Assembly (NCBI GenBank): GCA_944391725.1
Contig: CALXUQ010000001.1
Span: 17,345-81,344 of the forward strand
Origin: an uncultured Alphaproteobacteria bacterium
Lineage (GTDB): Bacteria > Pseudomonadota > Alphaproteobacteria > RF32 > CAG-239
DNA: 64,000 bases
Direction of reading: 5' to 3'
A program made the position numbers and the translations under genes. The notes beneath the pieces are model-generated. The model was not told the DNA's origin. It saw nothing but the letters and a program-made list of their open reading frames with translations, and searched no databases. Shown piece after piece: positions 22,253 to 64,000 of this stretch (position 1 is its first letter; every line of letters starts with the position of its first letter).

Positions 22253-22308
22253 ACTCAACATAAAAAAGAGGCCGACAAGCGACCTCATTTTATGGCGTAC
22301 CCGGAGGG
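22253..22308. repeat. Direct repeat copy 1 (56 nt): last 16 nt of tRNA-Arg plus 40 nt of its downstream flank
   Basis: ACTCAACATAAAAAAGAGGCCGACAAGCGACCTCATTTTATGGCGTACCCGGAGGG is identical to 22427-22482. Confidence 0.9.
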
Positions 22309-22426: not shown

Positions 22427-22482
22427 ACTCAACATAAAAAAGAGGCCGACAAGCGACCTCATTTTATGGCGTACCCGGAGGG
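22427..22482. repeat. Direct repeat copy 2 (56 nt), overlapping the 3' end of the intact tRNA-Arg
   Basis: Identical to 22253-22308, with a 174-nt offset. Confidence 0.9.
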
Positions 22483-22543
22483 ATTCGAACCCACGACCCT
22501 TGGCGTCGGAGGCCAATACTCTATCCAACTGAGCTACGGGTAC
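22467..22543 (-). tRNA. tRNA-Arg (anticodon CCG)
   Basis: Reverse complement GTACCCGTAGCTCAGTTGGATAGAGTATTGGCCTCCGACGCCAAGGGTCGTGGGTTCGAATCCCTCCGGGTACGCCA folds as a cloverleaf. 7-bp acceptor, D arm GCTC/GAGT, anticodon stem TTGGC/GCCAA with loop CTCCGAC, T loop TTCGAAT, encoded CCA. Confidence 0.9.
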
Positions 22544-41631: not shown

Positions 41632-41902
41632 TATGTAGATTTTAAATCCTCCGTAAAATCGCTCCAATAAACCCTAGACGAGCACTAAACTCCGGCACTC
41701 CTTAAAGTTCGGATAGTGGAATTAGTAGAGTAGTTTTTAGGGCGAGAAAAGCTTGAGCGTATATAGAAATACGTGCAGTCGATAGTTGGCGATTGGCAAG
41801 CACCTCGTGCGCAGACAGAGCCTTACGTGACGAGCGAGCTTGCGAGATCAACTTTTCGAGACCCGCTAAAACTGCTCTAATAACCCAAAATACGAACTTT
41901 TA
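41632..41902 (+). repeat. Hairpin-unit array C: 5'-truncated type-2 unit (about 41632-41700) plus a complete type-3 unit (41701-41902)
   Basis: The unit starts CTTAAAGTTCGGAT and ends CTCTAATAACCCAAAATACGAACTTTTA. It closely matches 63227-63429, including an identical ~85-nt internal segment. Confidence 0.85.
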
Positions 41903-45032: not shown

Positions 45033-45596
45033 ATGAAACAGATTGTATTTATCATCCTCACTTTGATATTTGCCCAACCGGCATTTTCGGCCAATAGCCT
45101 TGATGAGCTTTATCGCGACTTAATCCGCGCCGATAATGAAGGCTATTTACCCTTGTTTGTCAAGAACCGTAAAGTGCCCGATATTTTGAGTGATGATAAA
45201 ATTCCCGCCGCCCCTCAACCTGTGGCATCTACTCCTACACCAAACGATGTTCCGCAAGAGGTCAGTTTTGTTGACCCCCGCCAAAAGGAAGTCGAAGCCG
45301 CCAAAGCCGAAGCCCAAGCCTGGGAAAATGCCATCAAAGCCATTCAGGAAAATCGGGTCACCCCAATTGAGCTGGAAGAAGTTCTCAAACGCGTAGAGCA
45401 AAACAACCCTCGTGCGATTGAGATATATGCCTGGATGTTGACCAAAGGCGTGGGCGTCAAACAAAATCTGATTAAAGCCTTCCAGCTTTATCAGCAAGCC
45501 GCCAAATTAGGCGTACTCAATGCCGAAAACAATGCCGCACAAATCTATCGAGTTTTATCTCCTGACGAGAGAGCCTATTTAGCTAAAAACTCTTAG
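45033..45596 (+). CDS. Secreted Sel1-repeat protein
   Basis: ATG at 45033. Signal peptide MKQIVFIILTLIFAQPAFSA. C-terminal AWMLTKGVGVKQNLIKAFQLYQQAAKLG Sel1 motif. Confidence 0.7.
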   Translation: MKQIVFIILTLIFAQPAFSANSLDELYRDLIRADNEGYLPLFVKNRKVPDILSDDKIPAAPQPVASTPTPNDVPQEVSFVDPRQKEVEAAKAEAQAWENAIKAIQENRVTPIELEEVLKRVEQNNPRAIEIYAWMLTKGVGVKQNLIKAFQLYQQAAKLGVLNAENNAAQIYRVLSPDERAYLAKNS

Positions 45597-46270
45597 TGAT
45601 GCAGAGCTTTGTCTTCTTCTGCCTCTTTCATCAGCTCTTTAACAAAGCGTTTGAGTCCGACCTGACGTACTCTCTTCATCCGTTCTCCGGAGATAATTTT
45701 TTGCACCTTTTTGATGGTTTCTTCCAAATCCACATTCACAATCACGTAGTCAAACTCATCCCAGTGCACAATTTTATCTAAGATGATACCCATTCTTTTT
45801 TCAATCACCTCTTGAGAGTCAGTTCCGCGGCTTTCCAAGCGGCGGCGCAGTTCCTTAATCGAGGGAGGCAAGAGATAGATTGTCACCACATCATCACCGG
45901 CTTTAGCTTTCATCTCCCGAGCACCGGCCCAGTCAATATCAAACAGCACGTCTTGCCCAATATTGATAAAACTATCGACCTCGGAGCGCAAAGTTCCGTA
46001 ACGAGCCGAATATTGCGATTCGACGTGTTCATAAAAAGCATCTTGCGCCAAATATTGGTCATATTGTTCATCGGTCACAAAGATATAATCCACGCCGTCA
46101 ACCTCACCCGGACGTTTAGGTCTGGTGGTTACCGAAACCGAGAATTTGATATTTTTATCACGAGCCAACAACTCTTTGACCACGGCACTTTTACCGGTTC
46201 CCGAAGGCGCCTCAATAATAAACATGGCACCTTTACGCACTTTTCTTAAATTATCAATAATTTCATCCAT
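45593..46270 (-). CDS. gmk: Guanylate kinase
   Basis: ATG at 46270. APSGTGKS P-loop. VTTRPKRPGEVDGVDYIF. Confidence 0.9.
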   Translation of the reverse strand: MDEIIDNLRKVRKGAMFIIEAPSGTGKSAVVKELLARDKNIKFSVSVTTRPKRPGEVDGVDYIFVTDEQYDQYLAQDAFYEHVESQYSARYGTLRSEVDSFINIGQDVLFDIDWAGAREMKAKAGDDVVTIYLLPPSIKELRRRLESRGTDSQEVIEKRMGIILDKIVHWDEFDYVIVNVDLEETIKKVQKIISGERMKRVRQVGLKRFVKELMKEAEEDKALHH

Positions 46271-46278
46271 CACACACC

Positions 46279-47169
46279 TCACTCAATATTTTGAACTTGT
46301 TCTCTAAATTGCTCAATCAGCGCCTTTAGCTCCATTCCACAGTTAGTCAGTTCGATTTCGGCAGACTTGGAGCAAATTGTGTTGCTTTCACGATTGAGTT
46401 CCTGACACAAAAAGTCGAGCCTCCGCCCGATATTTCCACCGTTATTAAGCAGTTCTCCGGCAGTTTTGATATGCGCTTTCAAACGGTCGATTTCTTCTTG
46501 AATGTCCGCTTTGGTAACATATAAAACCACTTCCTGCGCCAAACGCTCCTCGCTGATTTGGTTAGAAGGCTCAAGCCAAAGTGCAATTTGTTGTTGTAGT
46601 TTGTCTTTAAGCCGTGCCGGCAGATTTTGAGCAATCTCATCAACTTTGGAAACCACTTCGCTGATTTTATAAATGATATCGCGCAGAGCGGCGGCAATTT
46701 TTTCGCCTTCGGCCTGGCGGTCCTGTTGCAAAGCCTCACAAGCCTGCGCAAAACTATCTAAAATTTCCGATTGCAGTTCGGCGGTTTCTTGTTCATCAAG
46801 TTTGTGATCCTCAATCTCGACCACCCCGCGAATATTTAGGATTTCAGCCGGATTAGGTTTTTGCATCAAGTCCTGATTATCTTGGTAGAGCTGCAAAATT
46901 TGGCTAGTAATTTTAGCAAGCAACTGTTCATTAATTTTGAGCTCCGGTTCACTGTTTGAGGCCGATACATCTAAAACCGCATAGACATTGCCGCGGGTTA
47001 GATATTCGGCAGCCAAATTTTTTATAGACTGGCTCATCCAATCAAGCCACATCGGGAGTTTGGTTTTAAGCTCTAATGATTTGCCATTAACCGATTTCAG
47101 TTCCCAAAACCAAGTATAATCGGTTTCCTTCACCCGAAAAGCACCATTCACTCTTGCAAATCCGGTCAT
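46279..47169 (-). CDS. yicC: YicC/YloC family stress-induced protein
   Basis: MTGFARVNG start at 47169. C-terminal GRRLDFLCQELNRESNTICSKS motif. Confidence 0.85.
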   Translation of the reverse strand: MTGFARVNGAFRVKETDYTWFWELKSVNGKSLELKTKLPMWLDWMSQSIKNLAAEYLTRGNVYAVLDVSASNSEPELKINEQLLAKITSQILQLYQDNQDLMQKPNPAEILNIRGVVEIEDHKLDEQETAELQSEILDSFAQACEALQQDRQAEGEKIAAALRDIIYKISEVVSKVDEIAQNLPARLKDKLQQQIALWLEPSNQISEERLAQEVVLYVTKADIQEEIDRLKAHIKTAGELLNNGGNIGRRLDFLCQELNRESNTICSKSAEIELTNCGMELKALIEQFREQVQNIE

Positions 47170-47259
47170 ACTGGATATATACAAAATAACACTCCTCAAA
47201 TCAGATTTTTTATATTATAGTGGCGATTATAAAGACTAAACCTTAACTCAGGATTAAAA

Positions 47260-48030
47260 ATGCTAACAAATGCTGAAAATATCTTAATCACCGGAGCAAG
47301 CAGTGGAATTGGGCGAGCTCTGGCGATATATTATGCTCAAAACGGAGCAAAAAATTTGTTTATCTGTGGCCGCAATTTTGAACGCCTTTCTGCCGTTCAG
47401 AACGAATGTACCACATATGGCGCATCAGTTTATCCGTGCATTTTAGATGTTACCGATAGACAAGCCGTCAAAGAATGGATATTTAACTGTGAGCAGGTTG
47501 CACCACTAAACTTAGTCATTGCCAATGCCGGTGTAGCCACTCTGCAAGAAACCCCGGAGCACATCTACAACACTTTTGAGACCAACATTTTTGGGGTTGT
47601 CAATACGGTATTACCGAGCATTGAAGTATATCGGCAAAGAGATAATAAGGCAGATAAGCGCAAAGCCATTGCCATCATCAGTTCGATAGCGGGTTATCAT
47701 GGTATGCCGAGTTGTCCTTCTTATAGTGCCTCTAAAGCCTGCGTTAAAGCTTGGGGCGAAGGCTTAAGAGGAGATTTGAAAGGAGATAAAATCAAAGTTA
47801 GCGTAGTGTGCCCCGGCTTTGTCCGCTCCGGCATTACGGATAAAAATACTTGCCCCATGCCATTTTTCTTAGAAAGTGATAAGGCCGCCGCAATCATTGC
47901 TCAGCGCATAGATAAGAATGTCGGGTTGATAGCATTCCCCTGGCCTACCCGATTTTTTGCATGGTTTGGTTCCATTTTACCCAACCGAATTAGCCAGTTT
48001 GTATACGACCGCCTTCCACATAAAGTTTAG
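47260..48030 (+). CDS. Short-chain dehydrogenase/reductase (SDR)
   Basis: TGASSGIGRA cofactor motif and YSASK active site. Confidence 0.85.
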   Translation: MLTNAENILITGASSGIGRALAIYYAQNGAKNLFICGRNFERLSAVQNECTTYGASVYPCILDVTDRQAVKEWIFNCEQVAPLNLVIANAGVATLQETPEHIYNTFETNIFGVVNTVLPSIEVYRQRDNKADKRKAIAIISSIAGYHGMPSCPSYSASKACVKAWGEGLRGDLKGDKIKVSVVCPGFVRSGITDKNTCPMPFFLESDKAAAIIAQRIDKNVGLIAFPWPTRFFAWFGSILPNRISQFVYDRLPHKV

Positions 48031-48046
48031 ATAATAAGTCCTTAAT

Positions 48047-48076
48047 TAAAACTCCGCTTGGTGCGGAGTTTTTTTG
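48047..48076 (+). terminator. Rho-independent terminator of the SDR gene
   Basis: AACTCCGC-ttggt-GCGGAGTT followed by TTTTTT. Confidence 0.85.
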
Positions 48077-48092
48077 TACCTCAAAAATCCGC

Positions 48093-48120
48093 TTGCAAAT
48101 TTGATAAGATAGGATAAGCT
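48093..48120 (+). promoter_or_regulatory. Predicted promoter of composite module A
   Basis: TTGCAA, 16-nt spacer, TAAGCT, 6 nt before the start of inter-copy conservation (48127). The same hexamers and spacing occur at 62445-62472. Confidence 0.5.
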
Positions 48121-48126
48121 AAAACT

Positions 48127-48296
48127 GCACTCGGGTGAGCCGGGTGCGGAGTGTCGAAACTCCTTATACAGAAAGAAAGCTCCTTGAATGGGGAGCGACC
48201 GGTATAAGTATGTCTTGCGCATAACGAAGAAGGTCGACTGTTTCTGTATACAGTTTCGAACTCCCCGCCTTAGGAAAGCTAGGGCGGTTTCTTTTT
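48127..48296 (+). ncRNA. Conserved structured leader/ncRNA with intrinsic terminator, copy A (unclassified)
   Basis: About 95 percent identical to 62480-62646 outside one helix, which shows compensatory replacement. Ends in CCGCCTTAG-gaaag-CTAGGGCGG plus TTTCTTTTT. Lies 28 nt upstream of the HTH ORF. Confidence 0.65.
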
Positions 48297-48324
48297 AACT
48301 GGAAACCTAAAGGGAGTTTAGAAC

Positions 48325-48573
48325 ATGGGCCATCATCGCAACCGTATTAAAGCTTGGCAAGCCTGTCAAAAAGAGATTGGCGCACAAATCAAAAATATGC
48401 GCTTAGAGTTAGATTTACCTCCACAAATTGCCGCCGAACTTTTGCATATCGGACTAAACCAGCTTTTGTACCTTGAAAACGGCTATATTGGGAAAATGCA
48501 AATTACAGTTCTCCACGCCTTGGCTTATAAATATCACTATAAGTTAAAAATCAGTTTTGAGAAAAAAACATAA
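48325..48573 (+). CDS. XRE-family helix-turn-helix protein (82 aa), copy A
   Basis: AAGGGAG RBS. IGAQIKNMRLELDLPPQIAAELLHIGLNQLLYLENG fits the HTH_XRE pattern. Paralog at 62676..62924. Confidence 0.75.
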   Translation: MGHHRNRIKAWQACQKEIGAQIKNMRLELDLPPQIAAELLHIGLNQLLYLENGYIGKMQITVLHALAYKYHYKLKISFEKKT

Positions 48574-48724
48574 AGTCATCCCTCGTTTTTCAGAGAAAAA
48601 CGTCCAGGGATCTTCCGATTAAAGCGACTAACTCGAAGACCCCTTGACGACTACTAACGTAGTCGAGGGGTGACATTATTTATGTATTAGTCACCCGCTA
48701 GACGAGCTATAAACTCTGGCACTT
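48574..48724 (+). repeat. Conserved structured tail of module A
   Basis: Nearly identical to 62938-63088. Nested hairpins ATCCCT-CGTTTTTC-aga-GAAAAACG-tcc-AGGGAT, TCTTC/GAAGA, CCCCT..GACTAC-taac-GTAGTC..AGGGG and GGGTGAC/GTCACCC. Confidence 0.8.
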
Positions 48725-49066
48725 CTTAAAGGTCGGAGTTTGAGGTTATTAGAGTTCTTTTCAAGGCGAAGAAAATCCTAGCGTATATAGAAATACGTGG
48801 ATTTTCTGAGACCGCAGAAAAGAGCTCTAATAACCCAAAATACGGGCTTTAAAGTTCGGAGAATGAGTCGTATAGAGTAATTTCTAGGGGAGATGACAAT
48901 CCTAGCGTATAATAAGCTCAATCTTTGGCACAAAAAAGTTCGGAGTTTGAGGTTAGTAGAGTTCTTTTCAAGGCGAAGAAAATCCTAGCGTATATAGAAA
49001 TACGTGGATTTTCTGAGACCGCAGAAAAGAGCTCTAATAACCCAAAATACGGGCTTTAAAGTTCGG
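48725..49066 (+). repeat. Hairpin-unit array A: type-1 unit (48725-48853), truncated type-2 unit (48847-48935), type-1 unit (48935-49066)
   Basis: Units share the 5' end CTTAAAG(G/T)TCGGAG, the apex TAGCGTATATAGAAATACGTGG and the 3' end GCTCTAATAACCCAAAATACGGGCTTTAAAG. The two type-1 units are nearly identical. Confidence 0.85.
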
Positions 49067-50921
49067 GGACAGAAGAATGAGTCCTCCTCTCTTCCGCTAC
49101 CGGAGCATCGTCGTTGCGCTCTAACTTCTCGCCTTTGATAACTTGCTTGATTTCATCACCGGTCAAGGTTTCATATTCAATCAAGGCTTCGGCCAAAAGT
49201 TCCCATTCTTTGCGCTTGTCTTGCAAAATCTGCTTGGCTTCATTATAACCCGACATCACCAAAGACTTGATTTCGGCATCCACCAAACGGGCAGTATCTT
49301 CACTCATATTTTTGTTTTGGGTAACCGACTTGCCTAAAAATACTTCACCCGAATTTTCGGCATACAGCACCGGACCGAGCAAATCGCTCATGCCCCATTC
49401 GGTCACCATAGAGCGCGCCAAGTTGGTTGCCGCCGCAATATCCGAAGAAGCTCCGCTGGTCACATCATCTGCCCCAAACTTGATTTCTTCGGCCACACGT
49501 CCACCCATCATAATTGCCAAGCGCGATTTCATTTTCTGCTTCGAATAAGAATATTGGTCTTTTTCGGGCAGTTGTTGCACCATACCCAAAGCCCGTCCCC
49601 GCGGGATAATCGTTGCTTTGTGAATGGGGTCGGTTTCTTTAACATATAGCGAGCAAATCGCATGTCCGGCCTCATGATAAGCAGTGAGTTGTTTTTCTTT
49701 CTCGTCCATCGCCATTGACTTGCGCTCTGAACCCATCATCACCTTATCTTTGGCTTCATCAAAATCCTTAGAAGTAACTTTGTGCTTGTTTTTGCGCGCC
49801 GCTAATAAGGCGGCCTCGTTCACCAAGTTGGCCAAATCTGCCCCCGAAAACCCCGGAGTACCCCGAGCAATTACCGACAAATTAACATCTTTGGCTAAAG
49901 GAACTTTTTTGACATGAACTTTCAAGATTTCTTCCCGACCTTTTTTATCGGGGTTAGAAACCACCACCTGACGGTCAAAACGCCCCGGACGCAGCAAAGC
50001 CGGATCCAAAACATCGGGACGGTTGGTTGCCGCAATCAAAATCACATTTTCATTGTCTTCAAAACCATCCATCTCCACCAACAATTGGTTTAAGGTCTGT
50101 TCGCGTTCATCATTACCGCCGCCGAGTCCGGCTCCACGGTGACGTCCCACCGCATCAATTTCATCAATAAACAACAGGCAAGGAGCATTTTTTTTGGCTT
50201 GAGCAAACATATCCCGCACTCGCGAGGCACCCACACCCACAAACATCTCCACAAAATCTGAACCCGAAATTGAAAAGAACGGCACATTTGCCTCACCGGC
50301 CACGGCTTTAGCAATTAGGGTTTTACCGGTTCCCGGAGGTCCAACCAGCAACACGCCTTTGGGGATTTTGCCGCCCAAACGCTGGAATTTTGCCGGTTCT
50401 TTCAAAAAGTCGATTACCTCTTCGAGTTCTTGTTTGGCCTCATCGGCACCGGCCACATCGTCAAACGTAACTTTTTTGGTATTTTCAATCAACCGCGCAC
50501 GTGATTTTCCAAAACTCATGGCTTTGTTGTTGCCCGAACTGGCCTGACGCATAAAGAAAATCCACACGCCGATTAGCAAAATCATCGGGAACCAAGAAAT
50601 CAGCACTCCCCAAAACGTATTAGCCGAAGTATCTTCCGGACGCGCCTCCACTTTGGCACCGCTATTTCGCAAGGTTTCAATCATGGTCGGGTCATATGGG
50701 GCATAAGTACTAAACTTGGTACCATCGGTTGCCGTACCCATAATATTTGCCCCCTCAATCATCACCTCGCTGATTTGCTTGTTTTCGGCTTTGGTCATAA
50801 AGTCCGAAAAAGCCATTGTCTGATAACCACGACTTTGCGGATTATTGCTAAACATATTCATAATTGCGGAGAGCAGCACAATTGCCACCAGCCAAATAAT
50901 GATACTTTTTCCTGATTTCAT
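49056..50921 (-). CDS. ftsH: ATP-dependent zinc metalloprotease FtsH
   Basis: 621 aa. GPPGTGKT Walker A. HEAGHA zinc motif. Two N-terminal TM segments. Confidence 0.97.
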
Positions 50922-61783: not shown

Positions 61784-62386
61784 ATGAAAAAAGAAAAAAT
61801 AGTTGATAAACCCGAATGTGAAGAAGACGAAGCCGCGGAAACTGAGCTTGAGCAAGAGCTTGCGGCCGAGGACGCCGCTGAGGGCGAAGCCGAAAACGAT
61901 GCGGAAGATTTAGAGTTTTTGAAAGCGGAAAATCAACGCCTAAAAGAAGACTTTTTAAGAGCTTATGCTGATGCCGAAAACATCAAAAAACGTTGTGCTC
62001 AAGAAATTGAGAAAAACAACAAATATGCCATTTCCTCTTTTGCCAAAAGTCTGTTAAGCGTTGCCGATAATCTGCACCGTGCGATTGATGCCCTCCCCGA
62101 GGACAAGAAACAAAACTGCCCCGAGGCCATGAGCTTGCTTAAAGGAGTTGAGCTCACCGAAGCAGAGTTGATGAAAGTGTTTGATAAATTCGGCATCAAA
62201 AAAATGGAAAGCCTCGGCACGGTTTTCAACCCCAACTACCATCAGGTCATTCAAGAGGTTGAGGACAAAGAAAAGCCGAACGGTACCATTATTTCTGAGC
62301 TCCAAACCGGTTATATGCTCAACGACCGCATTTTGCGTGAGGCCATGGTTGTGGTCACCAAAGGCGGACCGAGCGAACAGCATTAA
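61784..62386 (+). CDS. grpE: Nucleotide exchange factor GrpE
   Basis: Acidic N-terminus, coiled coil, and FNPNYHQVI / ELQTGYMLNDRILREAMV motifs. Confidence 0.95.
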   Translation: MKKEKIVDKPECEEDEAAETELEQELAAEDAAEGEAENDAEDLEFLKAENQRLKEDFLRAYADAENIKKRCAQEIEKNNKYAISSFAKSLLSVADNLHRAIDALPEDKKQNCPEAMSLLKGVELTEAELMKVFDKFGIKKMESLGTVFNPNYHQVIQEVEDKEKPNGTIISELQTGYMLNDRILREAMVVVTKGGPSEQH

Positions 62387-62409
62387 GCAATAAAAAGAAT
62401 TAATTTTTG

Positions 62410-62443
62410 CACTACTTACCGGAAAGGGTAAGTAGTGTTTTTT
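62410..62443 (+). terminator. Rho-independent terminator of grpE
   Basis: CACTACTTACC-ggaaag-GGTAAGTAGTG followed by TTTTTT. Confidence 0.85.
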
Positions 62444-62444
62444 G

Positions 62445-62472
62445 TTGCAATTTTTCAAAAATACTTTAAGTT
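62445..62472 (+). promoter_or_regulatory. Predicted promoter of composite module B
   Basis: TTGCAA, 16-nt spacer, TAAGTT, 7 nt before the conserved RNA start (62480). Positionally equivalent to 48093-48120. Confidence 0.5.
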
Positions 62473-62479
62473 AGGAGAT

Positions 62480-62646
62480 GCACTCGGGAGAGCCTGGTGC
62501 GGAGTATCGAAACTCCTCGTATGAAAGAATAGCTCCTTGAATGGGGAGCGACCGGAATAAGTGTGCCTTGCGCATAACGAAGAAGGTCGACTGACATACG
62601 CAGTTTCGAACTCCCCGCCTTAGGAAAGCTAGGGCGGTTTCTTTTT
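62480..62646 (+). ncRNA. Conserved structured leader/ncRNA with intrinsic terminator, copy B (unclassified)
   Basis: Same architecture as 48127-48296. The helix CGTATG (62518-62523) / CATACG (62595-62600) replaces TATACAGAAA/TTTCTGTATA of copy A. Identical terminator at 62615-62646. Confidence 0.65.
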
Positions 62647-62675
62647 AACTAGAAACCTAAAGGGAGTTTAGAGCT

Positions 62676-62924
62676 ATGGGACGTTATAGTAAACGAATTA
62701 AATCTTGGCAGGAATGCCGCAAAGAAATTGGCGAAAAGATTAAGGACATGCGATTAGAGTTGGATTTATCGCCCGAAACCGCCGCCGAAATTTTGCATAT
62801 TGGCACCAAACATTTATGTTGCTTAGAAAATGGCGACATCCGTAAAATGGAAATCTCTTATCTCCATTCTATAGCTTATAAATATAGCTATAAGTTAAAG
62901 ATAAGCTTTGAGAAAAAGAATTAG
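62676..62924 (+). CDS. XRE-family helix-turn-helix protein (82 aa), copy B
   Basis: AAGGGAG RBS. IGEKIKDMRLELDLSPETAAEILHIGTKHLCCLENG. 54 of 82 residues identical to copy A by hand count. Confidence 0.75.
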   Translation: MGRYSKRIKSWQECRKEIGEKIKDMRLELDLSPETAAEILHIGTKHLCCLENGDIRKMEISYLHSIAYKYSYKLKISFEKKN

Positions 62925-62937
62925 AAAAAACAAAAAA

Positions 62938-63088
62938 AGTCATCCCTCGTTTTTCAGAGAAAAACGTCCAGGGATCTTCCGATTAAAGCGACTAACTCGA
63001 AGACCCCTTGACGACTACTAATGTAGTCGAGGGGTGACATTATTTATATATTAGTCACCCGCTAGACGAGTTTTAAACTCTGGCACGG
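62938..63088 (+). repeat. Conserved structured tail of module B
   Basis: Differs from 48574-48724 at only a handful of positions. Confidence 0.8.
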
Positions 63089-63543
63089 CTTAAAGTTCGG
63101 AGAATGAGTCGTATAGAGTGATTTCTTTGGCGATGACAATCCTAGCGTATAAAGAAATACGTGGATTGGCATCTACCCCGTAAAATTGCTCTAATAAACC
63201 AAAATAAACTTTAACCTCAGGCACAGCTTAAAGTTCGGATAGTGGATTTAGTAGAGTAGTTTTTAGGGCGAGAAAAATTTTAGTGTAGATAAACCTACAT
63301 GCAGTCGATAGTTGGCGATTGGCAAGCACCTCGTGCGCAGACAGAGCCTTACGTGACGAGCGAGCTTGCGAGATCAACTTTTCGAGACCCGCTAAAACTG
63401 CTCTAATAAACCGCTAGACGAACTTTAAGGTAAATTGTGATATGTGAGTCGAATAGTAAGAAATTAGGAATTTTGCGACTGAGTGTATAAAGAAATACAC
63501 GATTGGAGCAAAATATCCGACATTTCTGTACTAGTCGACCACA
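63089..63543 (+). repeat. Hairpin-unit array B: type-2 unit (63089-63213), type-3 unit (63227-63429), degenerate type-2-like unit (about 63424-63543)
   Basis: Same conserved termini and apex as arrays A and C. The type-3 unit has 11-nt terminal inverted repeats, CTTAAAGTTCG ... CGAACTTTAAG. Confidence 0.85.
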
Positions 63544-63553
63544 GAGCACAATT

Positions 63554-64000
63554 TTATATCATGGCCATACCACCATTAATATTAATAGTCTGTCCGGTGA
63601 TATATTGAGCTTCATCAGATGCTAAGAAAGCAACCACATTGGCAATGTCTTGAGCTTCACCAAGTTTGCCTTCCGGAATTTTAGCCAACAAAGCAGCTTT
63701 CACATCTTCTGGCAAAACATCGGTCATCGGAGTACGAATGAAACCCGGAGCAATCGAGTTAACCGTAATTCCGCGAGAACCAACTTCTTGAGCCAAACAT
63801 TTGTTCATGGCAATCATACCGGCTTTTGAAGCAGAATAGTTAGCTTGTCCGGCATTTCCGGTAACACCAACCACCGAAGCAATACCGATAATACGACCAT
63901 AGCGGCGTTTCATCATACCGCGAACGGCAGCTTTAGCCAATTTGAAACCAGCCGAAAGGTTAACATCGAGCACCAACTGCCAGTCTTCATCACTCATCCG
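63554..64000 (-). CDS. fabG: 3-oxoacyl-[acyl-carrier-protein] reductase FabG, N-terminal part beyond window edge
   Basis: YSASKAG active site. C-terminal TGQTININGGMAMI. The ORF stays open to the window end. Confidence 0.85.
   Translation of the reverse strand, partial: RMSDEDWQLVLDVNLSAGFKLAKAAVRGMMKRRYGRIIGIASVVGVTGNAGQANYSASKAGMIAMNKCLAQEVGSRGITVNSIAPGFIRTPMTDVLPEDVKAALLAKIPEGKLGEAQDIANVVAFLASDEAQYITGQTININGGMAMI

Follow-up and report, generated by a model that had tools for sequence, protein, structure and literature searches.

In a 64,000-nucleotide stretch of DNA from an uncultured Alphaproteobacteria bacterium (assembly GCA_944391725.1, contig CALXUQ010000001.1, positions 17,345 to 81,344; hereafter the window), two related open reading frames (ORFs), each encoding a small helix-turn-helix (HTH) protein, resemble each other less than the non-coding DNA on either side of them. 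How can coding sequence drift apart while its flanks stay alike? A preliminary description, made from the letters alone, had recognized this reversal of the usual pattern and proposed three causes: diversification of DNA-binding specificity, exchange of cassettes within a conserved RNA scaffold, and gene conversion that homogenizes only the flanks. The explanation that we consider probable combines constraint on a structured RNA in the 5' flank with recombination between copies of the module; positive selection is neither needed for it nor detected, saturation of synonymous sites limiting that test.

The two copies lie in direct orientation at a spacing of 14.35 kb (copy A, 48127 to ~48721; copy B, 62480 to ~63085). 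Both occupy gaps between convergent housekeeping genes, 3' of the upstream gene's own terminator; copy A is preceded by an SDR gene and followed by ftsH, copy B is preceded by grpE and followed by fabG. The order of parts is the same in each: TTGCAA, 16 nt, TAAG(C/T)T, 7 nt, the leader start GCACUCGGG, the leader, the Shine-Dalgarno (SD) sequence AAGGGAG, an 82-aa ORF, a palindromic tail, and units of a second repeat family. The parts of the two copies are:

62445..62472, + strand: copy B promoter-like site (TTGCAA, 16 nt, TAAGTT), ending 7 nt 5' of the leader start; from sequence and conserved position
62480..62675, + strand: copy B structured 5' leader RNA; from fold z-score, covariation over 29 sequences and a terminator scan
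62480-62500, + strand: P1 of the copy B leader
62501-62516, + strand: P2 hairpin of the copy B leader
62518-62600, + strand: three-way junction P3/P4/P5 of the copy B leader
62603-62609, + strand: alternative-helix strand GUUUCGA of the copy B leader
62610-62615, + strand: anti-SD ACUCCC of the copy B leader
62615-62637, + strand: terminator-like hairpin P6 of the copy B leader, with a U-tract to 62646; from the terminator scan
62636-62657, + strand: P7 of the copy B leader
62660-62666, + strand: copy B SD sequence AAGGGAG
62676..62924, + strand: copy B ORF, an 82-aa XRE-type HTH protein; from the ORF list, profile searches, an AlphaFold2 (AF2) model, Foldseek, and the ratio of nonsynonymous to synonymous divergence (dN/dS, or omega)
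62938..63085, no strand assigned: copy B 3' tail, a REP/MITE-like palindromic repeat; from 97% identity to copy A, inverted arms and fold z-score
48093..48120, + strand: copy A promoter-like site (TTGCAA, 16 nt, TAAGCT); from sequence and conserved position
48127..48324, + strand: copy A structured 5' leader RNA, with the architecture of copy B; from alignment and nhmmer (E=3e-63)
48325..48573, + strand: copy A ORF, an 82-aa XRE-type HTH protein with the allele LNQLLY..GYIGKMQITV
48574..48721, no strand assigned: copy A 3' tail, a REP/MITE-like palindromic repeat that begins at the stop codon

Both modules were aligned with MAFFT and differences were counted per segment. The ORFs (62676-62921 versus 48325-48570) differ at 70 of 246 nt (~72% identity) and their products share 55 of 82 residues, so that the earlier hand count of about 72 differences and 54 of 82 residues was essentially right. 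The 5' element (62479-62675) is 89% identical between the copies (175/196) and the 3' tail (62938-63085) 97% (144/148); the greater divergence of the ORF is thereby confirmed, against both flanks (Fisher p=1.8e-11) as well as against the leader alone (p=7.8e-6). The value of about 95% originally given for the flanks holds for the tail and for the 78 nt of leader adjoining the ORF (62598-62675, 95%), but not for the 5' element as a whole, the distal part of which (62479-62590) is 87.5% identical. When 45 pairs of copies from this lineage were compared, the better conserved part was the leader in 36 and the ORF in 9, with median identities of 83% for the leader and 77% for the ORF; the window pair is therefore the strong end of a tendency and not an instance of a fixed rule.

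Is it selection on the proteins that sets them apart? Their differences are densest in the N-terminus (dN 0.22) and in the turn and helix 3 (dN 0.36), compared to dN of 0.12-0.13 elsewhere, and the C-terminal AYKY.YKLKISFEKK is unchanged between the copies; the preliminary description had seen both the clustering and the fixed C-terminus, and the recognition region that it predicted is indeed the turn with helix 3. The recognition-helix segment occurs as a few discrete alleles, TKHL..GDIRKMEISY, LNQLLY..GYIGKMQITV and TNHLLY..GYLKNMQIST (in shorthand K for TKHLCC, L for LNQLLY and N for TNHLLY), and in an alignment of 42 proteins the N-terminus, the helix-3 segment and the C-terminal extension each form discrete alternative blocks, which are found in many combinations. 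These patterns, and the fact that the nearest structural relatives include controller proteins of restriction-modification (R-M) systems and the HipB/HigA antitoxins, would suit diversifying selection on DNA-binding specificity, which, as in a phage immunity repressor or an antitoxin-like regulator, would drive the ORFs apart while the flanks lag behind. That this is the cause is nevertheless unlikely: the ORF differences are distributed 19/11/40 over the first, second and third codon positions, omega is 0.08 for the window pair (dN 0.207; dS 2.67, saturated), and 61 ORF pairs have a median omega of 0.145 and a maximum of 0.32. Divided into four regions, the ORF yields omega values of 0.07-0.21 throughout, with dS saturation greatest in the helix-3 segment. 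Moreover, the modules are found without phage, plasmid or toxin context, and promoter type does not follow the allele. The ORF is under purifying selection and, since dS is saturated, its alleles are old and not fast-evolving. Of the proposal of diversifying specificity, the notion of ongoing positive selection is not supported, and what remains is that the discrete, deeply diverged recognition-helix alleles are consistent with old specificity classes.

If the ORFs are old and constrained, what keeps the 5' flank alike? This flank, ~196 nt long, is a structured leader RNA that was previously uncatalogued and that folds with a z-score of -4.8. Twenty-nine distinct leaders (numbers such as L001 denote individual loci in the following) were brought into a gapless alignment by removing variable linkers, and the structure was read off this alignment and then scored. 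Paired cells amount to 97.5%, compared to 85.6% in shuffles (0 of 500 as high), and the covariation score of 0.381 falls to 0.04-0.06 when the partners are slid by 1-3 columns. Changes on both sides are found in 18 base pairs: one in P1, six of six in P3, four of four in P5, four in P6, and three in a long-range helix. The window copies themselves differ in this manner, with UAUACA/UGUAUA as P3 in copy A and CGUAUG/CAUACG in copy B. The long-range helix joins the P2 loop (UCGAAAC) with GUUUCGA, and its four variants (UCGAAAC, UAGCAAC, UAGUAAC, UCACAAC) are each accompanied by the matching complement. The leader also contains invariant or frequent U·G pairs, which would become A·C on the opposite strand; since they fit the ORF strand only, the structure belongs to the + strand transcript. 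At 45 or more loci, a small HTH ORF stands behind every complete leader; these ORFs belong to four subtypes. The element thus has the properties of a cis-regulatory leader, namely a covarying structured domain that lies on the mRNA strand and always directly 5' of the HTH ORF. Its architecture is kept in UMGS241, a species only ~75% identical in housekeeping nucleotides, which points to selection on the RNA.

Upstream of the leader, a promoter-like TTGCAW-N16/17-TAAKNT stands at a constant distance from GCAYYCGGG in all aligned copies. It was not called in a strict sigma-70 scan, and the promoter is therefore predicted from its conservation. At the gathering threshold, Rfam 15 identified only a tRNA-Arg in the whole window, and at E<=10 the region 62380-63560 gave only chance-level matches to unrelated families among 4227 families; ARAGORN detected no tmRNA. 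Two coding alternatives within the leader were considered and discarded: an upstream ORF from the invariant AUG in the P4 loop, which lacks an SD and shifts in frame and length between P5 variants, and a 43-aa ORF on the minus strand (62466-62597), which is incompatible with the pattern of compensatory substitutions.

Both window copies carry identical P4/P5, long-range-helix and P6 alleles, loop bases included. This identity and the pervasive recombination described below could suggest that the flanks are functionless and owe their likeness entirely to gene conversion that stops at the ORF borders. We regard this as very unlikely, since compensatory changes with strand-specific G·U pairs keep six helices paired over the 29 leaders, the architecture persists at ~75% housekeeping identity, and a more diverged form of the leader with its ORF exists at L023. 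Furthermore, the tracts exchanged between copies replace ORF segments as well as whole leaders, so that conversion does not spare the ORF.

The exchange itself is visible in comparisons of orthologous loci. SI.B29 (L001) is identical to the window over grpE (603/603), but at its orthologous locus B the leader reaches only 77% identity, and the ORF agrees to 78% over codons 1-20 and to 98% over codons 21-82. In contrast, L013 from BRZ matches the window in the leader (97%) but not in the ORF (73%), and at locus A the SDR gene of L002 is 96% identical to that of the window, whereas its distal leader (77%) and ORF (78%) are not. The leader of copy A equals that of L005, although the helix-3 coding segments of this pair are only 59% identical; conversely, the helix-3 segment of copy A is 95% identical to that of L007, which stands behind a different leader. 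An identical subtype-1b protein is found behind different leader variants at five loci. Leader and ORF identities are uncorrelated over the 45 pairs (Spearman rho=-0.10, p=0.51), and the PHI test is significant (p<0.001). Leader and ORF variants therefore reassort freely by recombination between copies. Of the early proposals, cassette exchange in a conserved RNA scaffold is supported, given that the structured RNA is real and that orthologous loci swap leader or ORF alleles; the proposal of gene conversion is partly right, in that recombination among copies is strong, but ORF segments are moved by it as well as leader segments, and not the flanks alone.

The arrangement in the window can accordingly be described as follows. 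Each copy would be an autonomous small transcription unit of promoter, ~196-nt leader and 82-aa HTH gene, with a separate palindromic repeat behind it. The two ORFs are old paralogous alleles kept functional by purifying selection, and the leader is constrained at the nucleotide level because of its conserved RNA fold (P1, P2, the P3-P4-P5 junction, the long-range helix, the terminator-like hairpin and the SD-pairing segment). Homologous recombination reassorts leader and ORF segments independently, with the invariant SD-proximal leader on one side and the conserved 3' coding end with the tail on the other as homology arms. The window copies happen to have nearly the same leader alleles and different ORF alleles, and the tail is a homogeneous dispersed repeat that is near-identical wherever it is present.

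What might the leader do? Judged from its complementarities, it is probably a bistable, riboswitch-like cis-regulator. GGAGU (62501-62505) has two possible partners, ACUCC within the P2 hairpin or a second ACUCC (62610-62614). Pairing with the latter prolongs the covarying long-range helix to a nested 12-bp helix around the P3-P4-P5 junction, and the same ACUCC(C) doubles as partner of the SD GGGAGU. Translation would be off in a first fold, in which the P2 hairpin is formed and ACUCCC is paired with the SD GGGAGU; in a second fold, GGAGUgUCGAAAC would pair with GUUUCGAACUCC around the three-way junction, so that the anti-SD is captured and the SD free. Which of the folds is adopted would depend on a signal that acts on the junction. 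With RNAfold, the SD-sequestered and alternative-helix folds lie within 0-3 kcal/mol of each other, and in two copies it is the alternative helix that has the minimum free energy. In the diverged leader of L023, all three segments have changed in concert, from GGAGU/ACUCC/ACUCC to GGUGU/ACACC/CCACC, and SD and anti-SD have shifted together from GGGAGU/ACUCCC to GGAGC/GCUCC. A third pairing that could mask the SD was observed separately: P2 loop and 3' strand (UCGAAACUCC) are complementary to the SD region (GGAGUUUAGA), at 62507-62516 versus 62663-62672 and at 48154-48168 versus 48308-48322, in the UCGAAAC loop variant only.

The terminator-like hairpin may additionally yield a short RNA. In a stronger form of this idea, the 5' element would be mainly a trans-acting small RNA (sRNA) that ends at P6 and is conserved for the sake of its targets, the ORF being expressed by occasional read-through. 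P6, a GC-rich hairpin of 9 bp with UUUCUUUUU behind it, was indeed picked up by the terminator scan and covaries, and the conserved single-stranded AUAAG, CGAAGAA and P4 loop could be seed or protein-binding sites. On the other hand, the distance from P6 to the start codon is only ~35 invariant nt without a promoter-like sequence, leaders that lack the ORF are confined to decayed copies, and the concerted change of anti-SD and SD in L023 speaks for a role in cis. A mainly trans-acting element is thus rather doubtful, yet it is compatible with constraint on the RNA and recombination between copies and does not exclude them. As to decayed copies, the subtype-2 ORFs of L009 and L040 have lost the HTH core by an internal in-frame deletion, leaving ~29 and 39 aa with N- and C-termini kept; the leader is intact in L040, whereas L009 is cut by the contig end.

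The 3' flank requires a different explanation. The tail is an imperfect palindrome, in which outer arms GTCATCCCTCG / CGAGGGGTGAC surround two hairpins, followed by GTGAC..GTCAC, and it folds with a z-score of -5.4. Units of it occur without a module (L022, with no leader anywhere in 8 kb), 5' of modules and reversed (L023, L053), and in duplicated or interrupted form (L002, L005, L018, L019); in contrast, L006, L010 and L012 lack the tail and end in a plain terminator. Stem variants are compensated, e.g., GACGACTAC/GTAGTCG versus GATGGTTAC/GTAACCA. Tails are enriched beside modules (six of eight exact-motif matches in the BRZ sister genome), but because the unit occurs independently elsewhere, it is an element comparable to repetitive extragenic palindromes (REP) or miniature inverted-repeat transposable elements (MITE), i.e., a short, dispersed, intergenic imperfect palindrome in both orientations without a tie to any single gene. 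It is not part of the module, and the downstream tail should not be counted as part of an RNA scaffold.

Could the whole unit then be a small non-autonomous MITE-like mobile element, with its ends as transposition substrates and the ORF as a passenger? It is multicopy, lies always in gaps between convergent genes beside other short-repeat clusters, and has a tail with inverted arms; in addition, another MITE is inserted in two of the leaders. However, inverted repeats that would connect the leader's 5' start with the tail's 3' end were not found, target duplications were not observed either, and many copies lack the tail. The DNA upstream of the promoter is locus-specific, and loci are orthologous at 94% and even at 75% genome identity. 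There are no copies in viral, phage or plasmid collections, and no associated transposase was found in the 64 kb of this genome that were covered, RAYT genes not having been searched for. A mobile element of this kind is accordingly highly improbable.

Other repeats surround the modules. A second dispersed family (TTAAAGTTCGGA...GCTCTAATAA) is found at 41686-41900, 48722-49069 and 63086-63426 and also in UMGS241 (L011); it has ~38-nt imperfect inverted ends and a central hairpin and forms tandem clusters joined at TTAAAG. Its occurrences in the window are:

63086..63426, no strand assigned: two units, outside the module; from repeat families D2, D4 and D5 and a motif census
48722..49069, no strand assigned: three units with 38-nt imperfect inverted ends and a central hairpin
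41686..41900, no strand assigned: a solitary unit without HTH module

As the solitary unit shows, these repeats are independent of the module. In BRZ_CI__bin121, an identical ~270-bp MITE with inverted ends GGCCCCTAAATCCCCCTTAAA / TTTAAGGGAGATTTAGGGGC was observed at L002 2662-2935 and L019 3806-4079, i.e., at the same leader position in two different copies, just after CAGTT, where it destroys the GUUUCGA strand; it is absent from the orthologous copy A of the window. Elsewhere in the window, an exact 56-nt direct repeat (22253-22308 / 22427-22482) overlaps with its second unit the 3' end of a tRNA-Arg(CCG) (22467-22543, minus strand). The T-arm-like GGGTTCAAATCC lies in the 118 nt that separate the repeats, and the arrangement looks like an att-site duplication left by an integrated element since lost, or like a tRNA-like remnant.

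The ORF product is an orphan XRE-type HTH protein. The best Pfam match of copy B is HTH_25 (21.2 bits versus a cut-off of 24.6), HTH_37 is weak too and copy A scores lower still; NCBIfam matches are far below their cut-offs, so that no curated threshold of Pfam or NCBIfam is reached. PADLOC and PHROGs returned generic HTH matches only. A profile search against the PDB found 4ghj (E=1.6e-4). AF2 on a wider alignment (a shallow one gave an unusable pLDDT of 59) places helices at residues 3-28, 33-39, 44-51 and 60-73, with helix 2 at about residues 33-39 and the recognition helix at about 44-51. Foldseek matched the model to C.BclI, HipB, 4ghj and the HTH of RodZ with a probability of ~1 and TM scores of 0.5-0.63, but with E>=0.037; the fold is comparable to solved XRE/Cro-C1 members. 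The proteins are predicted to be dimeric DNA-binding regulators with a few alternative recognition-helix specificities. The family is tiny and comprises 51 representatives at E<1e-3 among 1.84 billion sequences, and 316 clusters with a multi-subtype profile; the ORF subtypes are only 17-46% identical to copy B. The nearest proteins outside the family (P0065, P0067, P0070, P0071) have 360-520 aa and up to five tandem HTH-profile matches. Wherever a locus was inspected, the ORF had no partner gene: upstream of it is a gene that ends in a terminator, downstream a convergent housekeeping gene, and no toxin or R-M gene adjoins it. No evidence was found for allele-specific autoregulation at the promoter, whose type follows the locus and not the recognition-helix allele: L005, L006 and L007 combine one promoter with three alleles, and copy B and L013 one promoter with two. 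Tail variants are likewise independent of this allele.

The module family is confined to a narrow clade of human-gut Alphaproteobacteria. There are two copies in the window and at least ten in the sister genome BRZ_CI__bin121, and one closed 1.89-Mb contig holds several. An invariant 21-mer around the SD occurs nine times in BRZ_CI__bin121, a metagenome-assembled genome whose housekeeping DNA is 92-96% identical to the window, four times in UMGS241 (~75%) and once in SI.B29 bin 91. A distal-leader pattern retrieved 26 further loci, nearly all from human-gut metagenomes; one match (L030) was discarded as a chance hit in eukaryote-like DNA. IMG/VR contains no match to the leader pattern, no blastn match was found in phage and plasmid collections, and the flanking genes (grpE, fabG, ftsH, the SDR gene) give no prophage or phage context.

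Two loci bear on genome arrangement. L011 (UMGS241), compared with window 45582-48324 and 63554-64000, has a single module between the SDR and fabG orthologues, and the 14.3-kb block between the window copies is absent at that locus; modules hence coincide with synteny breakpoints. L057 (BRZ_B NODE_5120, 14,844 nt), an independent assembly compared with window 62176-63021 and 48935-49243, is identical to the window from grpE through the ORF of copy B and then crosses within the shared tail to the DNA downstream of copy A (the end of ftsH). Its length is close to the 14.35-kb copy spacing. The sequence could come from an excised circle or from a tandem duplication, or the assembler could have taken a path through the repeat.

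Several observations weigh against the explanation by RNA constraint and recombination, or against parts of it. P2, P4, P7 and the anti-SD:SD helix are invariant among the 29 leaders, and covariation therefore argues neither for nor against them, while the covarying long-range pairs could equally form a pseudoknot with the P2 loop instead of the alternative helix. Conservation of primary sequence within helices is unusually high for a riboswitch, for which gene conversion may be partly responsible, and the terminator-like P6 is not obviously overridden by either fold. Promoter, switch and DNA-binding role are predictions, and the AF2 model is of moderate quality only (pLDDT 70). Saturation of dS leaves room for episodic positive selection, which may have acted at a few recognition-helix sites. 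Finally, most comparison sequences are metagenome assemblies, in which paralogous repeats can be misjoined, so that some apparent recombinants may be chimeras; L029, L034, L043 and L047, with mismatched helices, are candidates, and the contig of L001 is short.

How does the system compare with described ones? The leader resembles structured 5' leaders, those of riboswitch type included, in that an RNA of several helices close to the promoter, with a junction, conserved internal-loop bases and covariation, is combined with predicted mutually exclusive helices, anti-SD:SD pairing and a terminator-like hairpin directly 5' of an ORF. It differs in that it matches no Rfam family, that the gene under its control encodes a regulator and has no metabolic or transport role, that about ten copies per ~1.9-Mb genome each stand 5' of a paralogue, and that helix variants are shuffled between copies. 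The protein shares its size of ~80 aa and its HTH core with small XRE/Cro-C1 regulators (C.BclI, C.AhdI, HipB, HigA, PDB 4ghj) but stays below curated cut-offs, lacks an adjoining R-M or toxin gene, and differs further in its long N-terminal helix and in the conserved YKYxYKLKISFEKK of its C-terminus. Tail and neighboring units resemble REP and bacterial interspersed mosaic elements (BIME), Correia elements and MITE-like repeats as short imperfect palindromes clustered between convergent genes, in either orientation, with or without a module, and with stems kept by paired changes; in contrast to REP/BIME, the tail lies preferentially, though not exclusively, beside modules, and no RAYT-type or other transposase was found, none having been searched for. 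Conserved flanks as homology arms between which variable segments reassort are also familiar from Neisseria pilE/pilS, Borrelia vls, Anaplasma msp2 and mosaic lambdoid repressors. Here, the product is a cytoplasmic HTH protein and not a surface antigen as in the first three, the modules lack the prophage context of lambdoid repressor alleles, and silent donor cassettes are missing, since promoter, leader and intact ORF are present in every copy.

A full-text literature search found no description of such a leader/HTH cassette system. One hundred candidate RNAs near HTH-XRE genes in human microbiomes have been reported (Fremin and Bhatt, 2021; PMC8040213); the leader motif sequences do not occur in the 200 of 408 supplementary files of that article that are searchable, and a prior listing there is possible. 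As a structured cis-regulatory leader, the RNA adds a new motif to a familiar kind, and the protein belongs to an orphan branch whose fold is familiar as well; unusual is the system-level picture of about ten sensor-plus-regulator cassettes with shuffled parts in a small genome. The locus is an example of how non-coding sequence can come to be more conserved than coding sequence without positive selection, via independent reassortment of old protein alleles and constrained RNA alleles. For metagenome assembly of these genomes, repeats that coincide with synteny breakpoints and ambiguous assembly paths are a warning.

More tentatively, the leader might represent a new class of sensor RNA that gates about ten paralogous DNA-binding proteins per genome, with recognition-helix alleles and leader helix variants continually re-dealt between loci. 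If true, this would be a recombination-shuffled system of regulator cassettes without described counterpart, possibly controlling abundant genomic repeats or incoming DNA. In any case, a well-supported, uncatalogued RNA motif of ~196 nt, in which six helices covary and an SD switch is plausible, is exclusive to an orphan family of small HTH proteins, and this leader RNA provides a concrete candidate for the discovery of a ligand or effector in the poorly known Alphaproteobacteria of the human gut.

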